From assembly GCA_964370865.1 (NCBI GenBank), contig CAYJKF010000001.1:111766-175765 (forward strand): DNA of 64,000 nt. The letters are read 5' to 3'. A program made the translations under genes and the position numbers. This document shows positions 30,818 through 47,563 of this stretch, in pieces. Below the pieces are notes generated by a model. The model searched no databases and was not told the DNA's origin. It was given only the letters and a program-made list of their open reading frames with translations. Source of the DNA: an uncultured Candidatus Saccharibacteria bacterium (GTDB lineage Bacteria > Patescibacteriota > WWE3 > 2-01-FULL-39-13). The first letter of the stretch is position 1. The number at the start of each line of letters is the position of its first letter.

Positions 30818-31111
30818 ATGAAAATAAAACCACTATCCGATAAAGTCGTCGTTAAGTTATTAGAAGCTAAAGAAATGACTTCTGGCGGAATCTATTTACC
30901 AGAGACTGGGCAAGAAGAATCACACGTCGCAGAAGTTATGGCCGTTGGAGATGGCAGGGTAATTGATAACGGAACTCTTGTAAAACCTGGCGTACAAGCT
31001 GGTCAAAAAGTAGTAATAAGAGGAAAATGGGCAGGCGATAACGTAACCGTTGATGGAGTTGAATATAAAGTAGTCGGCGAAAACGACGTACTAGCAATTT
31101 TAGAGGATTAA
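30818..31111 (+). CDS. groES: co-chaperonin GroES
   Basis: MKIKPLSDKVVVKLLEAKEMTSGGIYLPETGQEESHVAEVMAVGDGR is canonical Cpn10. The start is set at the internal ATG 30818. The ORF-track TTG start at 30794 is unlikely. Confidence 0.85.
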   Translation: MKIKPLSDKVVVKLLEAKEMTSGGIYLPETGQEESHVAEVMAVGDGRVIDNGTLVKPGVQAGQKVVIRGKWAGDNVTVDGVEYKVVGENDVLAILED

Positions 31112-32829: not shown

Positions 32830-34074
32830 ATGGAGAATCCTGCCAATGAGCAATTAAACACCCAAGAAGTCAACAATTCAGAATTCGCACAGAAAGAGCC
32901 ACTTGTTTATAAAAAAACTATAAAAAAATATGCAATGATCGCGGTGAGTGGCTTATTAGGACTGGCCATAATAATTACTGCTGTCGTTATCTATATGCGT
33001 TTTATGGATAGATTTAATGTGACGGAACCAACTCCACCGGTGACACCAACACCAACTCCTGAAATACCAAAAGCAGCATCGCCATTAATCGCCTATATTA
33101 AAAATGATAAATCAATTTGGATTGTAAACACTGATGGAACTGATAAAAAAGTATTGCTCGAACTGCCTGGATCATCGGATCAGTTCTTCTCGGATCTGAC
33201 TTGGAAAAGCAAAGGGTTTCTATCTTATTCACTCTGTGACACAAATCCAAATTGTACTGTGGAGACTTATAATTTAGAGACAAAGTCTTCTGTAACAGAA
33301 ATTAATAATTCAGAAGAAGGATTTGTGGAGTCATTAACTTGGGCACCTGAAAATAAATTCATCGGGTATTTTCAATACAAAGACCAAGGATCTCAGAACC
33401 AAACGGTGGAACTAAGACTTAAGACTGGAACAACCAATACTGTTTTATCAACACATAAAACAGAAATAAAAGATATCGAACAAGTCTCAAAAGTAACTTT
33501 CTCAGAAGACGAGGATCATATAGCCTTTGGTTTTGTAGAATTAGTTGCTTCAACAAGAGGCCGGACTATTACATATACAGCAAAACCTAAAATCTTAGTA
33601 TATAGAGTAAGCGGAGTATTGTTGGATACAATCAGCGATGCCAAAGACCCGATGTTCATAGACGAAAAAACCATCGCATATCAAAAGGGAGCACAGCTCA
33701 TACATAGGGAAATTGGGACATTATCAGAAACAGCTATTACTCCAATAACAGGATTCAACTTAGATGTTTCTCCTGACAAAAGTAAGTATGCATATTGGAG
33801 CCCTACAGGTGGATTCTCAGATGCTTTATTAATTATTTTTGATGGAAACCTAAACCTTCAAAGGAATATATTAAGAGGCGTCCTATTTCCACAGTGGATA
33901 AGCAACTCTACCGTTGTTGGGATAAAAGCTGATAACTGTTTAGGTTCAAAATGTGAATTATTCGATTATCAAACCATTAGTTTAGCTACCGTTAACATCG
34001 AAACAAAACAAGCAAATCCAATTGATCAAGGTCGCACTATTAAAGATGTTGAAGTAAATTACTATGCCAATTAA
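32830..34074 (+). CDS. membrane-anchored hypothetical protein with Pro/Thr linker and beta-rich extracytoplasmic domain
   Basis: 414 aa. TM helix IAVSGLLGLAIIITAVVIYM, linker TEPTPPVTPTPTPEIP, then a repetitive beta-strand-like domain. The stop overlaps the next gene's start by 11 nt. Confidence 0.4.
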   Translation: MENPANEQLNTQEVNNSEFAQKEPLVYKKTIKKYAMIAVSGLLGLAIIITAVVIYMRFMDRFNVTEPTPPVTPTPTPEIPKAASPLIAYIKNDKSIWIVNTDGTDKKVLLELPGSSDQFFSDLTWKSKGFLSYSLCDTNPNCTVETYNLETKSSVTEINNSEEGFVESLTWAPENKFIGYFQYKDQGSQNQTVELRLKTGTTNTVLSTHKTEIKDIEQVSKVTFSEDEDHIAFGFVELVASTRGRTITYTAKPKILVYRVSGVLLDTISDAKDPMFIDEKTIAYQKGAQLIHREIGTLSETAITPITGFNLDVSPDKSKYAYWSPTGGFSDALLIIFDGNLNLQRNILRGVLFPQWISNSTVVGIKADNCLGSKCELFDYQTISLATVNIETKQANPIDQGRTIKDVEVNYYAN

Positions 34075-35746
34075 AGAAGAATCACTAGAGGCCAATGCAG
34101 GTCAAAAACACCCAGTCCCACAGAACGTCATGGATGTTGAGTTTAAAGTTGTAGGAGATTTAACATTAAGGCAAGTCATGTATATTGCATTTGGGGGAGT
34201 TACAGCATACTTTTTATATAAAACAGGTTTACCAAATTTCTGGAAATATATACTAATGGGAATAAGTTTGATTACCGGAACGACAGTTGCTTTTGTTCCA
34301 ATTCAGGAACGCGGGCTTGATAAATGGTTAGTTATATTTATTAATTCAATCGTGAATCCGACCCAAATGATATGGAGAAAGTCTGTTAATTATGCCTCTG
34401 TATCCTTTTTATCAAACTACGACCAACTTCAAATAATAAAAAACGAAATGGTCTCACTTACACCTATTAAGAATCGTAACCGACTAGAAGAATATTTGGG
34501 TATGATTGAAAACACTCAAGATTCTAATTATGACCAATTCGAGATAACCCGAATGGGAGAAATCCAAAATAACCTAAGCGCTAAATCAAACGTTAGTGTC
34601 ACAACTCGCTTTGAAGAAACTCCAACTCTAGAACCTGTAATTCCGACTATTGATAAAGCCAGAATTCCAGAGAGAACACATGAAATAATTGACGTAGAAA
34701 AGAATCCAAAAATAGCTTCTCTTCCACACCAAAATACCATTGCTGAAGACGAGCTGGAGAGTAAGAAGGAGTTATTAAATGCCCTAGCAAACATCGAGGG
34801 AGGGTATAATAAAGATGGGCCAATCGAAATCTTTACTGAACAAAAGGTTAACAGACCTATTCTAAATCTACCTGAGCTTGGATCCAATAACTTCTCCTTG
34901 AAGGGTGAAATTAAATTAAAGAATATACGTAAATTCCCAACGGTAATCGTTGCCGAAGATATAAAAGGCATAAAAGAGCACGAAGAATCTCTAGAAAAAA
35001 AAGTATCAGAATTATTAATACTCGCAAAAAAAGCTAGAGCACAGTATCAAATTAAAAGTGGAAAAGAACCTAGTTTTAATACACCTATTGTTGAGGACGT
35101 TAAAGGCAGGGTTACGCAGTTAAGAGAGGAAAAGAAAAAACTTAAATTGGAAATTGATAAAAGCACAGAACAAGTAAATCTTATAGATAATACAAACAAA
35201 AACAGAGAAACACTTCAAAACCAAATTCAGATGTTAACACATAAAAATGAGGAACTTGAAACCATACTAAAGAAAATTAACTTAGAACTTGATGAACTGA
35301 AAGGAACACCAGAATACAAGGCTTCCAAGCAAAAAGAACCTGTAGAAAAGGTTGAAACTGAAGAAACTAAAACTGAAGAAGTGTTTACACCTGAAAAACC
35401 AATTACCCCAAAACCAATCGACAACCAGGTCGATGAGTTTAAATTCAAAGCAAGGCCATCCGTCAATAGTTCGTATCAAAACACTAATATTATCGAAGGA
35501 CTTGTAAAAGACATCTCTGGTAAACTAGTAGAAGGAGCAGCGGTTATTATTAAAGACTCACAGGGAAATGTTATTAGAGCCCTAAAAACTAACCAAGTCG
35601 GACAGTTCAGAACGCAGACTTCTGTACCAAATGGCAAATATACAATTGAAGTACTAAAAGGTGGCATGAGTTTTGATATTATAATAGTTGAAGCCGTTGG
35701 AAGGCATCTGAATCCAATTTACTTAGTAGCCAAGGAGTTAAATTAA
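34064..35746 (+). CDS. PrgI/VirB3-like two-helix membrane module fused to long coiled-coil domain
   Basis: The N-terminus DLTLRQVMYIAFGGVTAYFLY plus a second helix ILMGISLITGTTVAFVPI resembles the PrgI family of Gram-positive T4SS. It is followed by ~350 aa of K/E/L heptad-rich sequence. It lies directly upstream of the VirB4-like ORFs. Confidence 0.45.
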   Translation: MPIKEESLEANAGQKHPVPQNVMDVEFKVVGDLTLRQVMYIAFGGVTAYFLYKTGLPNFWKYILMGISLITGTTVAFVPIQERGLDKWLVIFINSIVNPTQMIWRKSVNYASVSFLSNYDQLQIIKNEMVSLTPIKNRNRLEEYLGMIENTQDSNYDQFEITRMGEIQNNLSAKSNVSVTTRFEETPTLEPVIPTIDKARIPERTHEIIDVEKNPKIASLPHQNTIAEDELESKKELLNALANIEGGYNKDGPIEIFTEQKVNRPILNLPELGSNNFSLKGEIKLKNIRKFPTVIVAEDIKGIKEHEESLEKKVSELLILAKKARAQYQIKSGKEPSFNTPIVEDVKGRVTQLREEKKKLKLEIDKSTEQVNLIDNTNKNRETLQNQIQMLTHKNEELETILKKINLELDELKGTPEYKASKQKEPVEKVETEETKTEEVFTPEKPITPKPIDNQVDEFKFKARPSVNSSYQNTNIIEGLVKDISGKLVEGAAVIIKDSQGNVIRALKTNQVGQFRTQTSVPNGKYTIEVLKGGMSFDIIIVEAVGRHLNPIYLVAKELN

Positions 35747-36442
35747 ATGAATAACAATATCAAAACTACGACACAAGGTCACCTTGACATAGCAGATATA
35801 AAAAATAATATTGTAATCTTAACAAACGGAGGAGCCTGCGCAATTATAGAAACCAATGCAATTAATTTTGATTTATTATCCCTACCCGAACAAGATGCAG
35901 CGATTTCATCCTTTAGTGCGTTGCTCAATTCCCTAACTTTTCCAATGCAGATTACAATTAGATCAAAAAAAATGGACATAAGCGAGTATTTAGAAAGGAT
36001 TAAAGAAGTTGAAGATAAACAAACAAACCCCAAGATCAGAGGACAAATAATGGCATACAGAACGTTCATCAAAGACGAACTTGTTACAAAAGAGGAAGTT
36101 TTAGATAAAAATTTTTACGTCACTATTCCATACAAAACAGTTTCTCTTGGTTCAATTTCACCTATGACTTGGATAAATGACTTAATGAATTTAGATACAA
36201 AAAACAAAAGTAAAATAAATGTCGAATCCATATTACAAGAAGCTACTCCAGATCTAGCCCCGAAAATTTCGTTTATACTTAAAGAATTCTCGAGGATGGG
36301 AATAAAAGCAAGACAATTAGGAACTGGCGAATTGATTAAACTTTTCTATGATTTATATAATAGTGAGAGTGCTCAGAGCCAGAAAATGAGGACCAATATG
36401 GCAGACTTCTCGTCTGTATTAGTTGAGCCAAAATTAGGATAA
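35747..36442 (+). CDS. VirB4/PrgJ-like conjugation ATPase, N-terminal domain (separate ORF)
   Basis: 231 aa. HLDIADIKNNIVILTNGGACAIIETNAINFDLLSLPEQDAAISSFSALLNSLTFPMQI matches the N-terminal domain pattern of Gram-positive VirB4 homologs. It ends at TAA 36440-36442, 4 nt before the next ORF, which is in a different frame. Confidence 0.55.
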   Translation: MNNNIKTTTQGHLDIADIKNNIVILTNGGACAIIETNAINFDLLSLPEQDAAISSFSALLNSLTFPMQITIRSKKMDISEYLERIKEVEDKQTNPKIRGQIMAYRTFIKDELVTKEEVLDKNFYVTIPYKTVSLGSISPMTWINDLMNLDTKNKSKINVESILQEATPDLAPKISFILKEFSRMGIKARQLGTGELIKLFYDLYNSESAQSQKMRTNMADFSSVLVEPKLG

Positions 36443-36446
36443 AAAT

Positions 36447-38561
36447 ATGTTAGGAATATTTGGGAAGAAAAAACAAGAGAAACCAAAAACTAATATTCCA
36501 AGCGATATGGAACAACCCGAAAATGTATCGAAAGCACTCTTAAAGGGAATTCCAGGGGTAAAAGATATAATCGCACCAAGCGCAATTGAAGTTGATTATA
36601 ATCATATAAAAATTGGAGATAAATATTTCAGAACCCTATTCATTTCTGCATACCCAAGATTCTTAGGCGCAAACTGGCTAGAACCAATAATAAACTTCAA
36701 TCATACAATGAGCATTTCAATGTTTTATTATCCAGTAAATGCGAGAAATGTTTTAGATGATATGAGAAGAAAAATCGCAGAAATGGAAGCCTCCATAAAC
36801 ATTGCGCGCGACAAAGGTAAAGTTGTAGATCCTGGAATTCAAGTGGCTCTGGAAGATGCGAAATCGCTACAGGAACAACTAGTAAAAGGGATTGAAAGAT
36901 TTTTTCACTATTCGTTCTATGTAACGTTTTCAGCCGATTCCTTAGAGGAACTAAAGGACGTATCTTATCAAGTTGAATCAACATTAGGGTCAATGGGACT
37001 GATGTCGAAAAAAGCTTCCCTTGATATGGAAAATGCTTTTAAAAGCACCCTTCCTCTTTGTTTAGATAAACTAAAAATAATTCGAAACATGGATACTACT
37101 TCCGTGGCTACAACCTTTCCGTTTACATCCAGCGATTTAACGGCGAATGAAGGAATTTTATATGGTGTAAATAAACATAACAGATCATTGGTTATTTTTG
37201 ATCGATTTAGTCTTGAGAACTACAACACTGTAGTCTTTGCCAAATCAGGTTCTGGTAAATCATATCTAGTGAAACTTGAAGCACTGAGATATTTGCTATT
37301 TGGCGTGGATATTATCGCCATAGATCCCGAAACTGAATACAGAAGATTATGCGAAGCTGTTGGGGGAGACTATATAGACTTCAATATAAAAAGTCAATCT
37401 AAGATAAATCCTTTTGAATTACCAGTTGTCACTGATACAGAAGATCAGTTAAGTCTTAAAATTTTAAGCCTTCATGCTCTTTTTAAAATTATGTTAGGAG
37501 CACTCTCCCCTGCAGAATCATCTATTCTGGATAGAGCCTTGGTAGATGTATATAGACTAAAAGGCATTACACAGGATGCTGCCACACAGAAAAATGAGCC
37601 TCCTCTAATGGAAGATTTATATAAAGTTCTACTTGCCATGGATGAACCAGAGTCTAAAGCTATTTCCGAGAGACTCGAAAGATTTATAAAGGGCTCCTTA
37701 GCAGGTGTATTTGATCAACGTTCAAATATCAATTTAGATAATAACTTCACTGCATTTTCGATTCGAAACCTTGAGGATGTATTAAGGCCAATCGCAATGT
37801 TTATGATTTTGGATTTTATTTGGACAAAGGTTAAATATGATCTCAAAAAACGTATATTAATTTTGGATGAGGCCTGGACGTTAATGCAATATCCTGATTC
37901 GGCTGCATATGTTTATTCATTAGCGAAAAGAGCCCGAAAATATTTCTTAGGATTAACAACTATTACTCAAGATGTTGCCGACTTCTTAGGTTCAGATTAT
38001 GGAAAAGCTGTTTTAAATAACTCCTCAATTCAAATACTACTAAAACAACATCCAGCCGCAATCGATAAAGTTGCTGAAGTCTTTTACTTGTCAGCAGGAG
38101 AAAGAAATTTCTTGCTTTCAGCAGGTGTTGGCGAGGGATTATTCTTTGCTGGAACCAACCACGTGGCAATTCAATTCAAGGCTTCGAAACAAGAACATTT
38201 GTTAATTACTACAAATCCTCAGGAAGTTGCGAAAATCGATGCTGATAAAAGCTTTAATGATTCACTAAAAACCGTAGATGAAAAAAACCAAACTAATGCT
38301 CCTCAGCAAGTGGGGATAGCTAATAAATATCAAATTATTGAACAGATTCCGCAACAAACACCAGTAGAAACCAATAGTGAAGTTATTGATCCTTTCGATA
38401 AAATTAGTCCCGTCTCAACTTCAGATGAGACTAAACCTATAAGCAATGCCGGCATTACTCCAATGCCAAATCCCTACTCTGGAATAACTGGAGATGACAG
38501 TGAAAATTATAAATCTGGAACAATTATTCTAAACGAAAGAAATTCAAGACCTACGGCGTAA
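36447..38561 (+). CDS. VirB4/PrgJ-like conjugation ATPase, ATPase body (Walker A/B) with C-terminal low-complexity tail
   Basis: IKIGDKYFRTLFISAYPRFLGANWLEPIINF (VirB4 mid-region), Walker A FAKSGSGKSY, Walker B RILILDEAW, then a ~100-aa Pro/Thr/Asn-rich tail. AGGA ribosome-binding site 7 nt upstream of the ATG. Confidence 0.7.
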   Translation: MLGIFGKKKQEKPKTNIPSDMEQPENVSKALLKGIPGVKDIIAPSAIEVDYNHIKIGDKYFRTLFISAYPRFLGANWLEPIINFNHTMSISMFYYPVNARNVLDDMRRKIAEMEASINIARDKGKVVDPGIQVALEDAKSLQEQLVKGIERFFHYSFYVTFSADSLEELKDVSYQVESTLGSMGLMSKKASLDMENAFKSTLPLCLDKLKIIRNMDTTSVATTFPFTSSDLTANEGILYGVNKHNRSLVIFDRFSLENYNTVVFAKSGSGKSYLVKLEALRYLLFGVDIIAIDPETEYRRLCEAVGGDYIDFNIKSQSKINPFELPVVTDTEDQLSLKILSLHALFKIMLGALSPAESSILDRALVDVYRLKGITQDAATQKNEPPLMEDLYKVLLAMDEPESKAISERLERFIKGSLAGVFDQRSNINLDNNFTAFSIRNLEDVLRPIAMFMILDFIWTKVKYDLKKRILILDEAWTLMQYPDSAAYVYSLAKRARKYFLGLTTITQDVADFLGSDYGKAVLNNSSIQILLKQHPAAIDKVAEVFYLSAGERNFLLSAGVGEGLFFAGTNHVAIQFKASKQEHLLITTNPQEVAKIDADKSFNDSLKTVDEKNQTNAPQQVGIANKYQIIEQIPQQTPVETNSEVIDPFDKISPVSTSDETKPISNAGITPMPNPYSGITGDDSENYKSGTIILNERNSRPTA

Positions 38562-39042
38562 TATTAATATTTTCTCCTACTTTTAGTCCTAACTTCTGAA
38601 CTTGACCCGCGTTTAATTCTAAAACGAATCTAGCAGGACTTGTTGGTACAATGCTATGACATAAAGCATCTACTGTAGATTCACACGGTTTTGCATTTTC
38701 TTTTATAAAAACAACTTTTCCCTCCTCATTAATCCAAATAATATCAAGTGCTATTAGGGTGTTTTTCATCCAAAATGGATATATTGAGGTGGACTCAAAT
38801 ATAAAAAGCATTCCTGCCTTTTCATCCATTTCTTTAACATGCATTAGCCCTCTTTGCCGTTTATCGTCATCATCAACAATCCATATATTATAGTTTTGTT
38901 CATTGATGGATATAGATTTAGTTGGAAGGCCGGATAAATAGGTATCGTCGGGTTTAATTTTATTTATTTTAAAATAGGTTGTGGATAAATAGAAAACACA
39001 CGCCACAACAACGAGTGTACATGCAATATAAATTACGTTCAT
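38551..39042 (-). CDS. DUF192-family protein (COG1430-like), membrane-anchored
   Basis: 163 aa. N-terminal TM, then IWIVDDDDKRQRGLMHV...GMLFIFE...YPFWMKNTLIALDIIWINEEGKVVFI, the DUF192 signature. Confidence 0.55.
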   Translation of the reverse strand: MNVIYIACTLVVVACVFYLSTTYFKINKIKPDDTYLSGLPTKSISINEQNYNIWIVDDDDKRQRGLMHVKEMDEKAGMLFIFESTSIYPFWMKNTLIALDIIWINEEGKVVFIKENAKPCESTVDALCHSIVPTSPARFVLELNAGQVQKLGLKVGENINITP

Positions 39043-39047
39043 TATTA

Positions 39048-39407
39048 CTATAATACCTGATTTGAAACTTCTTGGGATTCGATTGAAACAATTCCTTTTA
39101 GTGCTTTGAGGGCTTTTTCAATTTGTTCGTATTTGAGGTTGGTATTTCCTGTAAGTAAATCTACGTATATAAAGGAATGCTCTGGCCAAGTATGCAAAAC
39201 CAAACTAGACTCCGATAAAATGTATACTAAAGTTTCTCCTTGAATGGGATAAGCATAGTAGCATTTTTCAACAACACTTAATTGCGCTTCTTTTGAGATA
39301 GTATCGGCTAATAAATATAAGGCTTCCTTTGAATATTTATATTCCGAAGAAGTAGTGATTTTTATGACCGAATGATCAATTTTGATGTGTGTAGATGCTT
39401 TTTCCAT
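39048..39407 (-). CDS. speH: S-adenosylmethionine decarboxylase proenzyme (SpeH-type, pyruvoyl)
   Basis: ESSLVLHTWPEHSFIYVDLLTGN matches the class-1 AdoMetDC core (ES|S processing site, HTWPE). The start is set at MEKASTHIKID. The ORF-track start at 39503 would overlap the upstream gene by 128 nt. Confidence 0.65.
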   Translation of the reverse strand: MEKASTHIKIDHSVIKITTSSEYKYSKEALYLLADTISKEAQLSVVEKCYYAYPIQGETLVYILSESSLVLHTWPEHSFIYVDLLTGNTNLKYEQIEKALKALKGIVSIESQEVSNQVL

Positions 39408-40359
39408 TATATTGTCCTTTGACGAGTGGTTCTGTAGACGGAGTAACGTCGCAAACGTACAAATTACTTGAAGATCCAATACTTTCGGCTCCTTTATATA
39501 CATTAAACCTGTCGAGTGAATATCTTATCATAAGCCCACTGTCGGTTACAACCTTCTGGATTTTGAGGAATTTCTCCCTAGAAAGCTCACTATTACCGTA
39601 ACAGAAATAAATTCTTGAGGCTTTGTTATGAAAATCTAGTGCCTGAATTGCCCGGGAAAGAAATATCTTTATTCCCTCTTCTGTATAAGGTGGATCGGTA
39701 AAAACCACATCGAACTGACTTTTCAAATCTGTAGGAAAATTATCTTTAACGTCTCCTTTTATGATTTTAATTGGTAAGTTGAAACCAGCGGCATGTGTTT
39801 TTATAGAATTAATAACAAGATCATCTATTTCAAACACGCTAACTTGCTCGGCTTCATTCAATATACTTACAGCAACCGAAGTATAATCATCATCCCCAAG
39901 AAATAAAACTCGTTTACCCGACAAATCAAAATTCTTACTCATGTATAAAGCTCGTTTAGTAATAGTTTCGGAAGTTGCGGCAAATTGGTCGAACTCTCTT
40001 TTATCATGGACTTGAGACTTTTCCCTAATATCCTTTATTGTGTTATAGAGCTCTGTACTTTCAACATTTTCAATCTTTACGGACTGTCGGTTATCGGATA
40101 ATGTGGCTAAACTTTGCGCGACTTTTTTACCGTATTCGCTCAGCATAGTTTGAGGAACGATCTTCTCGAACATAGGACTTAATTCTTTTTTGATTAAAGT
40201 TAGACTTTGCAAAGATACGCCAGTTGATTGGATTACTTCTTTATTAACTAGACTACCTTGTTTAAAAAGCAGCACGAATAACTCCACAAGCTGGGAAAAA
40301 GGAATCCCAGATTTTTTAGAAAATCCTAATAAATCGGCGTTTACAAGTGGTTTTGCCAT
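39376..40359 (-). CDS. DUF43/BpsA-like aminopropyltransferase (polyamine biosynthesis)
   Basis: 327 aa. The FLGDDDYTSVAV (GDDD motif) and FTDPPYT segments resemble the DUF43 branched-polyamine synthase family. Its 3' end overlaps speH by ~32 nt. Confidence 0.5.
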   Translation of the reverse strand: MAKPLVNADLLGFSKKSGIPFSQLVELFVLLFKQGSLVNKEVIQSTGVSLQSLTLIKKELSPMFEKIVPQTMLSEYGKKVAQSLATLSDNRQSVKIENVESTELYNTIKDIREKSQVHDKREFDQFAATSETITKRALYMSKNFDLSGKRVLFLGDDDYTSVAVSILNEAEQVSVFEIDDLVINSIKTHAAGFNLPIKIIKGDVKDNFPTDLKSQFDVVFTDPPYTEEGIKIFLSRAIQALDFHNKASRIYFCYGNSELSREKFLKIQKVVTDSGLMIRYSLDRFNVYKGAESIGSSSNLYVCDVTPSTEPLVKGQYNGKSIYTHQN

Positions 40360-41038: not shown

Positions 41039-42106
41039 TTAAAAACTTATAGCGTCTACAATTCTTCCCCAAAAGCTTTGAAGGCTTTCTAGCTCTTGCC
41101 CAGTTTCGGCATCATAAGTGATTAAGGTATCTATTCTCGTCTCGAAAAGACCTAATACGCTTTGTGCTTTTTCAGCAGTCAATTCATATGCGATTTTTCC
41201 GTCTTTTTCAACGATTTCAACGCTTGAGACCTCGATCGAATCATCCGACTCTGACACTTTGCTTAATATTGCGTCTGGTAAATATTGGAGAGATTTTTCC
41301 CCACTATCTGTTAAAAGCAATATATCTCCAGTCGCGTCATCTACAGTTAATGGCAATCTAACTCTAACTTTTTTGCCCCTGTGCTCCAATTCATATGTCT
41401 CATCATCTTCACTTCTAATTAATACATCGTCATCCTCAGGTTCTGATTCATCTTCTGTTTCGTCCTCTAACTCATCTTCTAGCTCATCATTATCACTCGT
41501 TCTGCCAATTACCCTAACATAATTATGATTCTCATCATATTTAACTTTCGTAATACTCTGGTCCTCGTTTTTAATCATGAGTCTAAATTCTTCTCCATCC
41601 TTTGATTTGTACTTAATTTCGGATACTTTACCACCATTCTCTGAAAACACTTTGGCTTGATACTCTTGTTCCGAGTTACCGTTTTCGTCTTTTGCTTTAT
41701 ACTCTTCGATAACTTTACCGTTTACTCCATAGGTTTTAGTCTCGATTTCCACTTTTCCGTTATCTTCAACCTTTTTCTTTGTAACAGTGCGGGTTCCATC
41801 TTGGTTTACTTTAGTAGTTCGAGTCTCTTTTTGCTCGTCATCATCTCTTTCATCTTCATCATTGTCATCATCTTCATCGTCATCATCTTCATCCCTACCA
41901 TTACGCTCACCTTCGTTTTCATCATCCTCATCTTCGTCATCGTCTTCCTCATCTTCCTCAGACTCATCCTCGTCACCAAGGACGTAGCCGAAAAAAGTAA
42001 AAGCCAAGGCTTTTGAGGGAAACATTGACCTGAATAAAATTGCCGGACTTAAAATAAGAGCAATTGAAATTACTAGGTAAAACACGAGATCTTTAAATTT
42101 CATCAT
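41039..42106 (-). CDS. secreted hyper-acidic (Asp/Glu-repeat) protein
   Basis: 355 aa. N-terminal signal/TM, then ~70 residues of nearly pure D/E (DEDESEEDEEDDDEDEDDENEGE...DDDDEDDDNDEDERDDDEQ), a beta-rich middle, and a second acidic block. Confidence 0.45.
   Translation of the reverse strand: MMKFKDLVFYLVISIALILSPAILFRSMFPSKALAFTFFGYVLGDEDESEEDEEDDDEDEDDENEGERNGRDEDDDDEDDDNDEDERDDDEQKETRTTKVNQDGTRTVTKKKVEDNGKVEIETKTYGVNGKVIEEYKAKDENGNSEQEYQAKVFSENGGKVSEIKYKSKDGEEFRLMIKNEDQSITKVKYDENHNYVRVIGRTSDNDELEDELEDETEDESEPEDDDVLIRSEDDETYELEHRGKKVRVRLPLTVDDATGDILLLTDSGEKSLQYLPDAILSKVSESDDSIEVSSVEIVEKDGKIAYELTAEKAQSVLGLFETRIDTLITYDAETGQELESLQSFWGRIVDAISF
41790..41975. repeat. GAT/GAA/GAC codon-repeat low-complexity DNA (encodes D/E tract)
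   Basis: Imperfect trinucleotide repeats (gatgatgaagatgacgaagat...). They produce spurious Ser/Ile-rich antisense ORFs (41657..42016, 41787..41987). Confidence 0.5.
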
Positions 42107-42233
42107 ATTTTTATACTATATGAACTGATTTCTATGTCAAATCAGTTTTTGGGTTTTCAAAATATTATTTATAGTTAGGAGTATTCCATATGTTTTTAAG
42201 AATAGCCGACCGAGGAATGCTATAATCGGTATC

Positions 42234-43019
42234 ATGGAAACCGATGATTGGAACATCAAGGTAGATCGAATTAAGAAAAAAATAATTGAGGCAGGAAATA
42301 TCGGATTACAACATTTTAGAAACCATCCAATAAACGCAATTGAGAAAACTACTTTCTATGAAATTGTCACTGAACAAGATATAGAAATGGAAGACATTAT
42401 AAAAAAAGAAATCTTAAAGAATTTTCCAAGTGCATTTATATTAGCCGAAGAATCTCCGACCTAAGTCGAAGGAAATTTTTGGACAGTCGATCCCCTAGAT
42501 GGCACGAGCTATTACCAAAGAGGATTATCAGACTGGTCTGTTAATGTGGCTTATATAAAAAACAAAGACGTCGTTTTAGCCATAACATACTGCCCAGTTA
42601 CTAAAGAGTTATTTTATTCTGAAAAAGGAAAAGGTGCTTATCTTAACGGAAAAAGAATTCATGTGTCTGATACTACTGAAATGAAAAAAGGATGCTTCTT
42701 CTTTGGATATAATTACCTTCGAAAGTTTAATAATTCTAAATCAATTAAATTTAGGTCTGGATTTCGTACCATCTGGAGTACAGGGTCAACTGCATTAGCA
42801 TTAGCAAACTTGGCAGCTGGAAGAGTTGATGTCGGAATTCAAATCAACCAATCTTTTTGGGATATAACTGGAATGCTTCATGTTACAGAAGCCGGAGGTC
42901 GCTTTACGAATTGGAAAAATGGGAAAAAATTCGAATACTCCGCTTCGCAGATAAACAATTTCTGTGCGACAAATGGAAAGCTCCATCCCTTAGTCATGGA
43001 TTCACTCGCGGAAAAATAA
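42234..43019 (+). pseudogene. inositol-monophosphatase-family (SuhB/CysQ-like) gene interrupted by one in-frame TAA
   Basis: ORFs 42234..42464 and 42546..43019 are in the same frame. Together they read ...ILAEESPT*VEGNFWTVDPLDGTSYY...SFWDITGMLHVTEAGG, with the IMPase motifs (EE metal site, WxVDPLDGT, WD..G...EAGG) on both sides of the TAA at 42462-42464. No other stop intervenes. Confidence 0.6.
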
Positions 43020-43117
43020 CTCCATATGTGGTGGGCAGAACTGAATGAAGTGTCGAACTGAAAATAGGTTGGATCAATTCTAAAGAGCACCCAGAAATAT
43101 TTCTTAAAAACTTATAA

Positions 43118-43924
43118 TTATTTATCTTGAGTGAAATTCATCGTTCCAATAATTTTTTCGAGCTCATCTATTGAATTTTTGTTTTCTGTGTTATTCTCAA
43201 TGCTGAATACATAAAGTGTATTAAACAATTTCTCTTCGTGTATTAATAGATAATATCTTTTAATATTATCTGCATATTTAATATCCATAACCATTACGTC
43301 TTTTCCTTGTATTTTGAAAACTCTTTTTTGTGTGACTTCCCCATTTTCCATATCCACTAAAGGTTCTGGAGTACTGAATTCAAAACCATAGTCAGCTTTA
43401 TACGAATCTAATAATGAATACTCAGTGGTTGTTAACTGGAGAAATATCTCATTTTGTTTACTTTCATTAAATAAAAAATTCATCCCTTCCGCACCAGCAA
43501 TTCTTGCCGTCCAATCAGATGGATAAATCAAGCTATAGCCACTAACTTTATATCCATCTAAAGGTACTGTTACTTTATTTTTAAATTCATCGGCTTTTTC
43601 ATAACAATACATTTCGGGTTGCTGACAATTTAACATTCCACTTTTATCAATAGCATCATTAACAACCTCATTTGTAGATATAGTTACTACGTTTTCATCA
43701 ATTGTGTTTGTTTCAGCTTTATTGGGAACTATTAGCGAATTGCTACACGAGAGTTCTACTAACTTAGGTATAGTTATAAGACTTTGATATTTCATACCAA
43801 AATAAAAGCCGATAAAGGGCATTAAGATAAATATTATCAAAGCTAATGTCTTGGACAATGGAGTAACTTTTGTAAAATTATATTTTAAGTCTTTATGAAA
43901 ACTTTCGTCAGTACTATTAACCAT
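43118..43924 (-). CDS. hypothetical membrane-anchored protein
   Basis: 268 aa. N-terminal TM LALIIFILMPFIGFYFGM, then an extracytoplasmic domain. No motif. Confidence 0.4.
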   Translation of the reverse strand: MVNSTDESFHKDLKYNFTKVTPLSKTLALIIFILMPFIGFYFGMKYQSLITIPKLVELSCSNSLIVPNKAETNTIDENVVTISTNEVVNDAIDKSGMLNCQQPEMYCYEKADEFKNKVTVPLDGYKVSGYSLIYPSDWTARIAGAEGMNFLFNESKQNEIFLQLTTTEYSLLDSYKADYGFEFSTPEPLVDMENGEVTQKRVFKIQGKDVMVMDIKYADNIKRYYLLIHEEKLFNTLYVFSIENNTENKNSIDELEKIIGTMNFTQDK

Positions 43925-43967
43925 TACTATAAATATAACCTACTTTATATTTAATGGTCAAAGAGCC

Positions 43968-44044
43968 TGGTGGGCGGACATGGACTCGAACCATGAACCT
44001 CCAAGGTATAAGCTTGATGCTCTAACCAGTTGAGCTATCCGCCC
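43968..44044 (-). tRNA. tRNA with anticodon UAU (tRNA-Ile reading AUA), CCA encoded
   Basis: Reverse complement folds as acceptor GGGCGGA/TCCGCCC, D-arm GCTC-AACTGGTTA-GAGC, anticodon arm TCAAG-CTTATAC-CTTGG (U33, TAT, A37), T-arm CATGG-TTCGAGT-CCATG, discriminator A, CCA. Confidence 0.65.
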
Positions 44045-45313: not shown

Positions 45314-47563
45314 TTAGTACCTAGATCTCCCGCCCCCACGTGAAAATCCTCCACGACCGCCATTATCTCTTCGGCTTCCACCAAATCTGTTTCCGCCACC
45401 TCGATCAAAGCTTGGTCTAGGTTCTGGTTCAACATATCCTTCTGGTTTTTCTAATAAAGCCTTTCGTGATAGTGAAATTTTTCCATTATCTAGTGACTTA
45501 ACTTTTGTGGTTATTTTGTCACCTAGATTTACGTATTCACTAATATCATTGATAAAATCATAAGAATATTCAGAAACATGAAGTAAACCTTCTTGTTTTG
45601 GAGCGAGTTCAATAAACGCACCATAAGGTTCAATTCTTGTAACAACACCTTCATATGTTTCACCGACTTCTATTTCGATAGTCATTCGCTCAACCATATC
45701 TACGGCTGCTGCTAATTTTTCTGGATCGTTAGACATTATTGAAACGACTCCACCTTCGGGAACTTCATCGACATCTACCTGTGCTCCAGTTGCTTCCATG
45801 ATTCCTCGAATAGTTGCTCCACCACTTCCAATAATCATACCTATTTGATCTTTTTCAATCATAATTGTAACGATTCTTGGTACGGTCTTACCCAACTCTG
45901 CCCTTGGTGTAGAGATAACAGATTCCATAACATCCAAGACCTGCATTCTAGCGGTTCTGGATACTTCGAATAATTTATCGAATATACCAAGAGGCAAACC
46001 TTGGAGTTTTAATTCTAATTGAATTGCAGTCATACCTTCTCTTGTTCCTGTTAATTTGAAATCCATATAACCTGCAAAATCCTCAATACCCATAATGTCA
46101 GTCAGCAATTTGTAATCTTCTAGGGATAAATTTTCTTTATCCTTATCAACAAAAAGACCAACGCCAATACCTGCTACATGTGATTTAATTGGTACGCCTG
46201 CATCCATTAATGCTAATGAAGATCCGCATGTTGATGCCATTGAGGTAGAACCATTTGAGGATAGTATTTCTGAGACAACCCTAATAGTATAAGGAAAATC
46301 CTTTTCGTCTGGCAGAACGGCTATGAGAGCCTTCTCAGCCAACATTCCATGTCCAATCTCTCGTCTGTTTGTATTACCTACTCTTCCTACTTCACCTGTC
46401 GAGTACGGAGGAAAATTATAATGATGCATGTAACCTTTTTTAGATTCGCCATACATACTTTGTGTGTAGTGTTTTTCACTTGCAGAACTTAACGTAACAA
46501 TGGATAATGCTTGAGTTAATCCTCTGCTGAATAATCCTGATCCATGAACCTGAGGTAATACAGCAACCTCTGCTGAAAGCTCTCGGATTTGATTATCAGG
46601 TCGTCCATCAATTCGGCTATTTTTAACCATCACTACATTTCTGACCCAATCTTTTTGAACTTCGTTAATTATTATTCCGATTTGTTTTTCGGAAAATTTA
46701 TCTTCGTATTTTGGTCCAACTTCTTTTGCAATTCCATTTAAAGTTCTGTTCCATTCTCTATCTTTATAAGTTAATCCATTTGCCAACATTTCATCAATCT
46801 TTGCAAACGTAACTTCTTTAAATTCAGCTATGGCGTCTTTACTCAACCAATTCTTTTCGTACTTTCTTATTGGAACATTTAGTTTGGAAATAAATTCATT
46901 AACTAAATCGAAAAGTGGTTTAACTTCTTCTCCTCCTTGTTTGATAGCGGCAACAACTTCTGCTTCTGGAATTATATGGGCATGAGCTTCTAGGGCTTGG
47001 ACTTTGCTTCCATTCTCTAAGTAAGAAACTACTAAATCCATTGCTGATTCTGGATGACCTTCTGATAAATCATATCTTGTTTCACCATTAACCTTAGAAA
47101 TTCGAAGTGGCAAAATAGGTCCTTTAAAAGGAATCCCACTTATCCCAAGTGCTGAAGTAACTCCCAAAAATCCTGCAAATAATGGATCATTAACACCATC
47201 TATCGAAAGAACTGTAATAACTATTTGAGTATCATCTGCATAATCTTTTGGAAATAACGGCCTAATTGCATGATCAATTAAACGTCCGTTTACAATTGCT
47301 CCATCATTTGGTCGACCTTCTCTTCTTGTATATCTTGAACCACCAAGTTTTCCCCCGGCATAAAATCTTTCTTCGTAATCAATCTTTAAAGGTAATCCAT
47401 CAGTTATTTCTACTGTTGGTTGTGAAACAACAGTTACCAAGACAGTTGTTTCACCGACAGTCGTTAAGACTGCAGCATCTGCCTGCTCAGCTAATTTACC
47501 AATTTCCAACTTAATACTTTGACCCTTAAAAGAGCCTTCCTGCTTTATTATTTTTTTATTCAT
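45314..47563 (-). CDS. pnp: polyribonucleotide nucleotidyltransferase (PNPase)
   Basis: 749 aa. Two RNase PH-like cores, KH and S1 (GETYEGVVTRIEPYGAFIEL) domains, and a C-terminal RGG-rich tail. Confidence 0.9.
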   Translation of the reverse strand: MNKKIIKQEGSFKGQSIKLEIGKLAEQADAAVLTTVGETTVLVTVVSQPTVEITDGLPLKIDYEERFYAGGKLGGSRYTRREGRPNDGAIVNGRLIDHAIRPLFPKDYADDTQIVITVLSIDGVNDPLFAGFLGVTSALGISGIPFKGPILPLRISKVNGETRYDLSEGHPESAMDLVVSYLENGSKVQALEAHAHIIPEAEVVAAIKQGGEEVKPLFDLVNEFISKLNVPIRKYEKNWLSKDAIAEFKEVTFAKIDEMLANGLTYKDREWNRTLNGIAKEVGPKYEDKFSEKQIGIIINEVQKDWVRNVVMVKNSRIDGRPDNQIRELSAEVAVLPQVHGSGLFSRGLTQALSIVTLSSASEKHYTQSMYGESKKGYMHHYNFPPYSTGEVGRVGNTNRREIGHGMLAEKALIAVLPDEKDFPYTIRVVSEILSSNGSTSMASTCGSSLALMDAGVPIKSHVAGIGVGLFVDKDKENLSLEDYKLLTDIMGIEDFAGYMDFKLTGTREGMTAIQLELKLQGLPLGIFDKLFEVSRTARMQVLDVMESVISTPRAELGKTVPRIVTIMIEKDQIGMIIGSGGATIRGIMEATGAQVDVDEVPEGGVVSIMSNDPEKLAAAVDMVERMTIEIEVGETYEGVVTRIEPYGAFIELAPKQEGLLHVSEYSYDFINDISEYVNLGDKITTKVKSLDNGKISLSRKALLEKPEGYVEPEPRPSFDRGGGNRFGGSRRDNGGRGGFSRGGGRSRY

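Follow-up and report, generated by a model that had tools for sequence, protein, structure and literature searches.

A very young nonsense mutation probably inactivates an IMPase-family phosphatase gene in a clonal Patescibacteria strain

We find that a single in-frame TAA interrupts an otherwise intact IMPase-family phosphatase gene in a Patescibacteria strain. It is very likely that this TAA is a genuine and very young nonsense mutation, E77* (GAA to TAA), which inactivates the gene in one clonal strain. The stop is fixed in that strain, which has been assembled many times, and the intact allele survives on a rare sister haplotype. The gene lies in a 64-kb stretch of DNA, all of which we analyzed and which we call the window; coordinates are those of the window unless another contig is named.

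We propose the following course of events. A G-to-T change at position 42462 turned Glu77 (GAA) into an ochre stop, in a variable loop between the EE pair and the DPLDGT motif. Translation from the native ATG (42234) would then end after 76 residues, on an mRNA that is probably leaderless, with transcription from an extended -10 promoter that is conserved. After the stop, the first start codon in frame is the GTG of codon 105, which lies past DPLDGT and has no ribosome-binding site, and hence no active enzyme would be made. The gene would look perfect because the event is very young, and its low dN/dS would reflect selection before the stop.

Results

One internal stop in a gene with all family motifs

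Translating positions 42234-43019 of the plus strand, we obtained a single frame of 261 codons followed by a terminal TAA; only one stop lies inside it. The gene and the two features that frame the interruption are as follows.

42234..43019, plus strand: IMPase-family (PF00459) gene with one interruption, from the Pfam match and the alignment with intact homologues
42462..42464, plus strand: in-frame ochre stop TAA, codon 77; GAA in the related sequences L002, L004, and L005
42489..42506, plus strand: DPLDGT metal-binding motif, codons 86-91, 3' of the stop and 5' of the first possible restart

The joined product, with an X at codon 77, matched the Pfam profile PF00459 (Inositol_P) at E = 7.1e-41 and 140.9 bits, against a gathering score of 27. 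This match is one stretch that covers residues 18-256 and profile positions 14-264 out of 271, and it bridges the stop. The EE pair (codons 72-73, 42447-42452) lies 5' of the stop, and the WD...EAGG motif occupies codons 209-222 (WD 209-210, EAGG 219-222). Aligning the window protein with 15 homologues (16 sequences in all), we find that E72, E73, D86, P87, D89, G90, W209, D210, and E219-G222 fall in invariant or nearly invariant columns. Codon 77 itself sits in the variable, indel-tolerant loop between EE and DPLDGT, where the residue is E, R, K, T, N, or S in the homologues. The original prediction had placed both halves in one frame with every family motif in its place, and the translation, the Pfam match across the stop, and the alignment confirm this. 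The uninterrupted frame and single polypeptide that define a superfamily member are absent from the window gene and present in the sister allele (P0122).

The WDIAAG motif region departs from the family pattern by a one-residue deletion and a T in place of A (WDI-TGM), which the window protein has in common with the homologues P0001, P0002, and P0004. Since intact orthologues carry it too, WDI-TGM is a trait of the clade and not a sign of decay.

By sequence, the closest solved structure is the Thermotoga maritima IMPase (PDB 2p3n; phmmer E = 4e-36), and the closest named homologue is a "monophosphatase [Patescibacteria group bacterium]" with 85% identity. The window protein resembles the T. 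maritima TM1415 inositol monophosphatase/fructose-1,6-bisphosphatase (2p3n), SuhB, HisN, and CysQ in its fold family, as judged by sequence, and in the EE, DPxDGT, and WD motifs. It differs from them in the deletion plus T of its subclade at WDIAAG and in scoring far below the cut-off of every NCBIfam equivalog model (HisN, FBPase/IMPase, SuhB/IMPase, CysQ); the best of these matches, HisN, gave 118.7 bits against a cut-off of 275. The protein is thus placed by sequence as an IMPase superfamily member, with no specific subfamily or substrate assignable from the NCBIfam scores.

Relatives carry GAA at the position of the stop

We compared the window gene with one intact allele and with orthologues. 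The intact allele encodes a 261-aa protein (P0122), the only intact one in the same 90% cluster, and is found on L002, a rare contig of 1.6 kb at 1.8x coverage (ENA ERZ13692938). That accession belongs to the same ENA series as the stop-carrying contigs, and L002 and the stop-carrying ENA contigs are possibly from the same study. The two orthologues, at about 85% identity, come from L004, a contig of a metagenome-assembled genome (MAG), and from L005 (Logan SRR24011139). Codon 77 is GAA (Glu) in all three sequences. The ancestral codon was therefore GAA, and one G-to-T transversion at 42462 made the stop. This is the outcome of the ortholog comparison that had been proposed together with the idea of a recent nonsense mutation, and it supports that idea.

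L002 aligned without gaps over 1600 bp to window positions 42037-43636, with 21 mismatches (98.7% identity). Within the gene, 18 codons differ; 15 of the differences are synonymous and at third positions, and the remaining three are E77*, D81N, and E112D. D81N and E112D are both conservative, and intact homologues vary at these two positions. Comparison with L002 and the orthologues revealed no second lesion in the window gene. The earlier statement that the gene has no frameshifts or motif decay therefore stands: the TAA is the sole lesion, and the motifs lie on conserved columns.

Among the GTDB species-representative genomes we found only the MAG of the 85% orthologue (L007) and not the window's own species, and the JGI metagenomes yielded no relative. 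The isolate name of the MAG behind the 85% homologue bears the tags "erpe_2018_sw" and "WHONDRS", which we take to denote river surface water.

The two alleles differ in two short tracts

The 18 in-gene differences between the window and L002 are not spread along the gene. They fall into two tracts.

42461..42596, plus strand: divergent tract 1, with 14 of the 18 in-gene differences from L002, codons 76-121, 9.9% over 141 nt, dS 0.49
42785..42845, plus strand: divergent tract 2, where 4 of 66 nt differ from L002, all synonymously, codons 184-204

Outside both tracts, the other 579 nt of the gene showed no difference and the 814 nt of flanks showed three. The T of the stop is the second variant site of tract 1, at the very edge of the tract, right after a C/A difference at 42461. 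The dS of 0.49 in tract 1 is close to the species-level dS against L004 (about 0.65), which suggests that the alleles differ by short homologous-recombination tracts from a diverged relative.

Polarizing the 18 sites with L004 as outgroup, we find that L002 agrees with it at 13, the window at 3, and neither at 2. Within the patch, L002 stood at a dS of 0.56 from L004 and the window at 0.91, where the background is about 0.65; these values come from only about 30 synonymous sites. Two histories would fit equally: a more distant lineage may have donated the tract to the window, or a lineage nearer to L004 may have donated it to L002. We found no paralogue or gene-conversion donor copy within the window. 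Adenine-directed (diversity-generating) mutagenesis of the variant tract was also considered and rejected; the differences are synonymous third-position changes and are not adenine-specific.

The signal of purifying selection is older than the stop

Performing a Nei-Gojobori analysis of the stop allele against L002 with codon 77 skipped, we obtained a dN/dS of 0.03 (15 differences synonymous, 2 non-synonymous). Under neutrality 21% of changes should be synonymous, and this was rejected by a binomial test (p = 4e-9). Against L004, omega was 0.126 upstream of the stop and 0.098 downstream, with no sign of relaxed constraint after the stop. The stop-allele copies are all identical, leaving no variation within the lineage in which relaxed selection after the stop could be tested.

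The divergence from the intact allele built up in a gene that still worked, and the stop came last. The dN/dS of 0.03 against the intact allele therefore records purifying selection that is older than the stop. The original prediction had described the gene as appearing to be under purifying selection; that signal is real, but it predates the stop and is no evidence of continued function.

Expression of the gene and routes past the stop

We then list the features that bear on translation of the interrupted gene.

42218..42226, plus strand: extended -10 promoter-like element TGCTATAAT, which ends 7 nt upstream of the ATG; unchanged among the window, L004, and L005
42234..42464, plus strand: N-terminal ORF fragment of 76 aa (P0121), which ends after EE; identical product on 29 contigs
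42546..43019, plus strand: C-terminal ORF of 157 aa (P0003), start GTG at codon 105, without EE, DPLDGT, or a Shine-Dalgarno sequence; found on 27 contigs

The element TGCTATAAT is kept in L005, though the rest of the L005 upstream region is unrelated. A consensus promoter scan did not report it, there being no -35 match. The ATG at 42234 has no Shine-Dalgarno sequence (window 42218-42236). Together with the position of TGCTATAAT, this suggests that the phosphatase mRNA is leaderless or nearly so. A divergent and a convergent neighbor flank the gene, which is monocistronic, and the stop is therefore expected to have no polar effect.

The codons that follow the TAA in frame are GTC GAA GGA AAT TTT TGG ACA GTC GAT CCC CTA GAT GGC. 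No in-frame ATG, GTG, or TTG lies between the stop and codon 105, where the first is the GTG at 42546. No Shine-Dalgarno sequence precedes this GTG; the one SD-like AAGGA found 3' of the stop stands before a TTG in another frame. A restart at codon 105 lies past DPLDGT, and its product would hence lack four metal ligands. The 157-aa C-terminal ORF is presumably untranslated or inactive. From this lack of an in-frame restart before codon 105, we infer that enzyme activity is lost.

One could imagine that the stop allele is a tolerated leaky state, in which low-level UAA read-through leaves a reduced amount of enzyme, or that the gene is toggled on and off by recombination tracts among co-occurring strains. 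The toggling reading takes its cue from the position of the stop at the edge of a tract and from the one rare haplotype with a "repaired" version. We regard such a leaky or switchable state as improbable.

Functional read-through or suppression of the TAA, by a suppressor tRNA or leaky termination, would produce the full-length enzyme, possibly at a down-regulated level. The loop position accepts E, R, K, T, N, or S and indels in the homologues; any inserted residue should be tolerated there, and any read-through product would thus be active. The remaining gene and its promoter are intact, and the stop allele is dominant in the sampled population. However, relatives do not share the stop: codon 77 is GAA in the sister allele and in the orthologues, and a sense codon in every intact homologue. 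Folding of the RNA around the TAA was no more stable than that of shuffled sequences (z = -0.94). Using ARAGORN and Rfam, we found four tRNAs in the window, namely Phe, Cys, Ile(UAU), and Ser, and none with the anticodon UUA of a suppressor; tRNAs were the only Rfam matches. Efficient suppression would be costly because TAA ends most genes here, and the intactness of the gene is equally explained by recency. UAA is the least leaky bacterial stop codon. Programmed read-through and suppressor-tRNA recoding share with the window gene an in-frame stop in an otherwise intact gene, but the window stop is not conserved among relatives, is UAA and not UGA or UAG, and comes with no stimulatory element or suppressor tRNA that we could find in the window. 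Read-through, which the original prediction had kept as an option, drew no support from these results, and we consider it very unlikely.

A split enzyme, with an active phosphatase put together from the 76-aa fragment and a separately translated C-terminal one, would agree with the fact that gene finders call both ORFs on every contig. However, the first in-frame start is codon 105, and residues 78-104, including DPLDGT, are absent from both pieces. Moreover, the GTG of codon 105 has no Shine-Dalgarno sequence, and the AAGGA could serve only the out-of-frame TTG. An active enzyme of two pieces is therefore hardly credible, and we retain the reading that the stop ends production of the enzyme.

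The split gene recurs across assemblies

We searched ENA, Logan, and NCBI assemblies for the two fragments. The 76-aa and 157-aa products occurred with identical sequence on 29 and 27 contigs, respectively (up to 571 kb), counts of limited biological independence: the contigs are independent assemblies, but one study may be the origin of most, some of them may be the same reads put through different pipelines, and they may not represent separate populations. The ENA assemblies with the locus are ERZ13692936, ERZ13692938, and ERZ13692942, and several of the assemblies are probably from one study because these accession numbers are close together. A position index placed P0121 in 45 blocks and P0003 in 40 blocks. 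The 24 contigs read per fragment look-up all led to one locus with the same split into 76 aa and 157 aa. The neighboring 268-aa gene was found in 39 index blocks, always adjoining the split gene. Contigs L001, L003, and L006 are 100% identical to the window across 3.4-6.5 kb; we conclude that the strain is clonal and that different assemblies reproduce the TAA.

A sequencing or assembly error at this site, with G as the true base and GAA as the true codon, would leave the gene intact. Such an error might be suspected from the intact GAA allele in the same ENA accession series and from the modest coverage (5.9-7.3x) of the stop-carrying ENA contigs. However, ENA, Logan, and NCBI assemblies all have the identical split gene, on 27-29 contigs between them, and the site lies outside homopolymers and otherwise error-prone contexts. 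Moreover, the TAA is linked with 17 other in-gene differences from the GAA allele, a pattern of two haplotypes and not of one miscalled base. The error that had been offered as one explanation of the stop is thus rejected as highly improbable, and a genuine nonsense mutation remains our preferred reading.

The genetic code and other interrupted frames in the window

The window has about 35% G+C and is densely coding under the standard bacterial code. TAA is the terminator of 31 out of 49 open stretches with 150 codons or more, and the terminator of the IMPase-family gene is a TAA at the same residue as in its orthologues.

Searching all six frames for pairs of open stretches, each 60 codons or longer, that are parted by just one stop, we found 12 cases, the IMPase-family gene among them. 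The other cases appear to be boundaries of adjacent ORFs or lie antisense to genes. Examples are a 105-aa/541-aa ORF pair at 31109, which is GroES/GroEL-like in its sizes only, and a PNPase gene (a 749-aa ORF with the full PNPase domain set) with its 361-aa neighbor at 45314. With the TAA-ATG junction at 35744-35746 set aside, the IMPase-family gene is the only interrupted conserved gene in the 64-kb window, in agreement with what had been predicted from the letters.

Reassignment of TAA to a sense codon has nothing in its favor beyond this one codon, and its chance is negligible: most long stretches, the gene itself included, end in TAA, and no other conserved gene is interrupted in 64 kb, which bears out the earlier view that genome-wide TAA recoding is unlikely.

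The neighborhood of the gene

The region from the 3' end of the IMPase-family gene to a tRNA-Ile gene (window 43020-44044; L007 5170-9946; L005 875-1553) is a strain-variable slot.

43968-44044, minus strand in the window (L005 1477-1553; L007 9870-9946): tRNA-Ile, anticodon UAU, conserved in all three related genomes

The slot holds a 268-aa gene with no known domain in the window, a 189-aa gene in L005, and about 4.7 kb with ABC-transporter, FtsX, PadR, and His_Phos_1 genes in L007. L007 has a second copy of the 3' end of the IMPase-family gene, 176 bp long (L007 9092-9267) and about 84% identical to window 42819-42994; a 47-aa ORF in this copy is the exact C terminus of the L005-type protein. 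Judged by these sequences, it looks as if an island had inserted into the 3' end of the IMPase-family gene and brought a replacement end with it. Contig L003 breaks at this same point.

Most bacteria read AUA by a lysidine-modified CAU tRNA, and a UAU tRNA-Ile is unusual. This tRNA may point to a lineage without TilS.

On the other side, the divergent neighbor (41039-42106, minus strand) encodes a 355-aa protein whose N-terminal part includes a hydrophobic segment and which contains long low-complexity runs rich in Asp and Glu. It had no Pfam match, and its orthologue in L004 has 366 aa. Further away, polyamine-related genes lie upstream of a fasciclin-domain gene (38551-40359, minus strand) and are syntenic with L004; they encode a DUF192 protein, an AdoMet decarboxylase-like ORF, and a BpsA_C protein (branched-chain polyamine synthase C-terminal domain). 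A cluster that resembles a conjugation or type IV secretion system occupies 34064-38561 on the plus strand, with a 560-aa PrgI-family protein, a 231-aa protein without a Pfam match, and a 704-aa TraG/VirB4-like P-loop ATPase. The 560-aa PrgI-like and 231-aa ORFs share a frame, with nothing to separate them but a TAA followed directly by an ATG (35744-35749).

Discussion

The phenomenon described here is ordinary. Strain-specific, polymorphic loss-of-function alleles that arise by a single nonsense mutation are well documented in many bacterial populations. Like other nascent bacterial pseudogenes of this type, the window gene is one base away from the sense codon of its relatives, shows no further decay, has an intact allele segregating beside it, and is without polar effects. 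Nothing essential sets it apart from them; its host is an uncultured member of the Patescibacteria, and its allele differs from the intact one by what appear to be short recombination tracts.

For the locus, the finding means that its annotation should be one pseudogene that contains an internal stop, not two small proteins, and that it is no evidence for recoding. It also means that an interrupted gene that looks intact can simply be a very young knockout. The locus offers a small and clean example of a segregating loss-of-function allele, together with recombination tracts, in an uncultured CPR bacterium, and the stop could be useful as a strain marker in the source samples.
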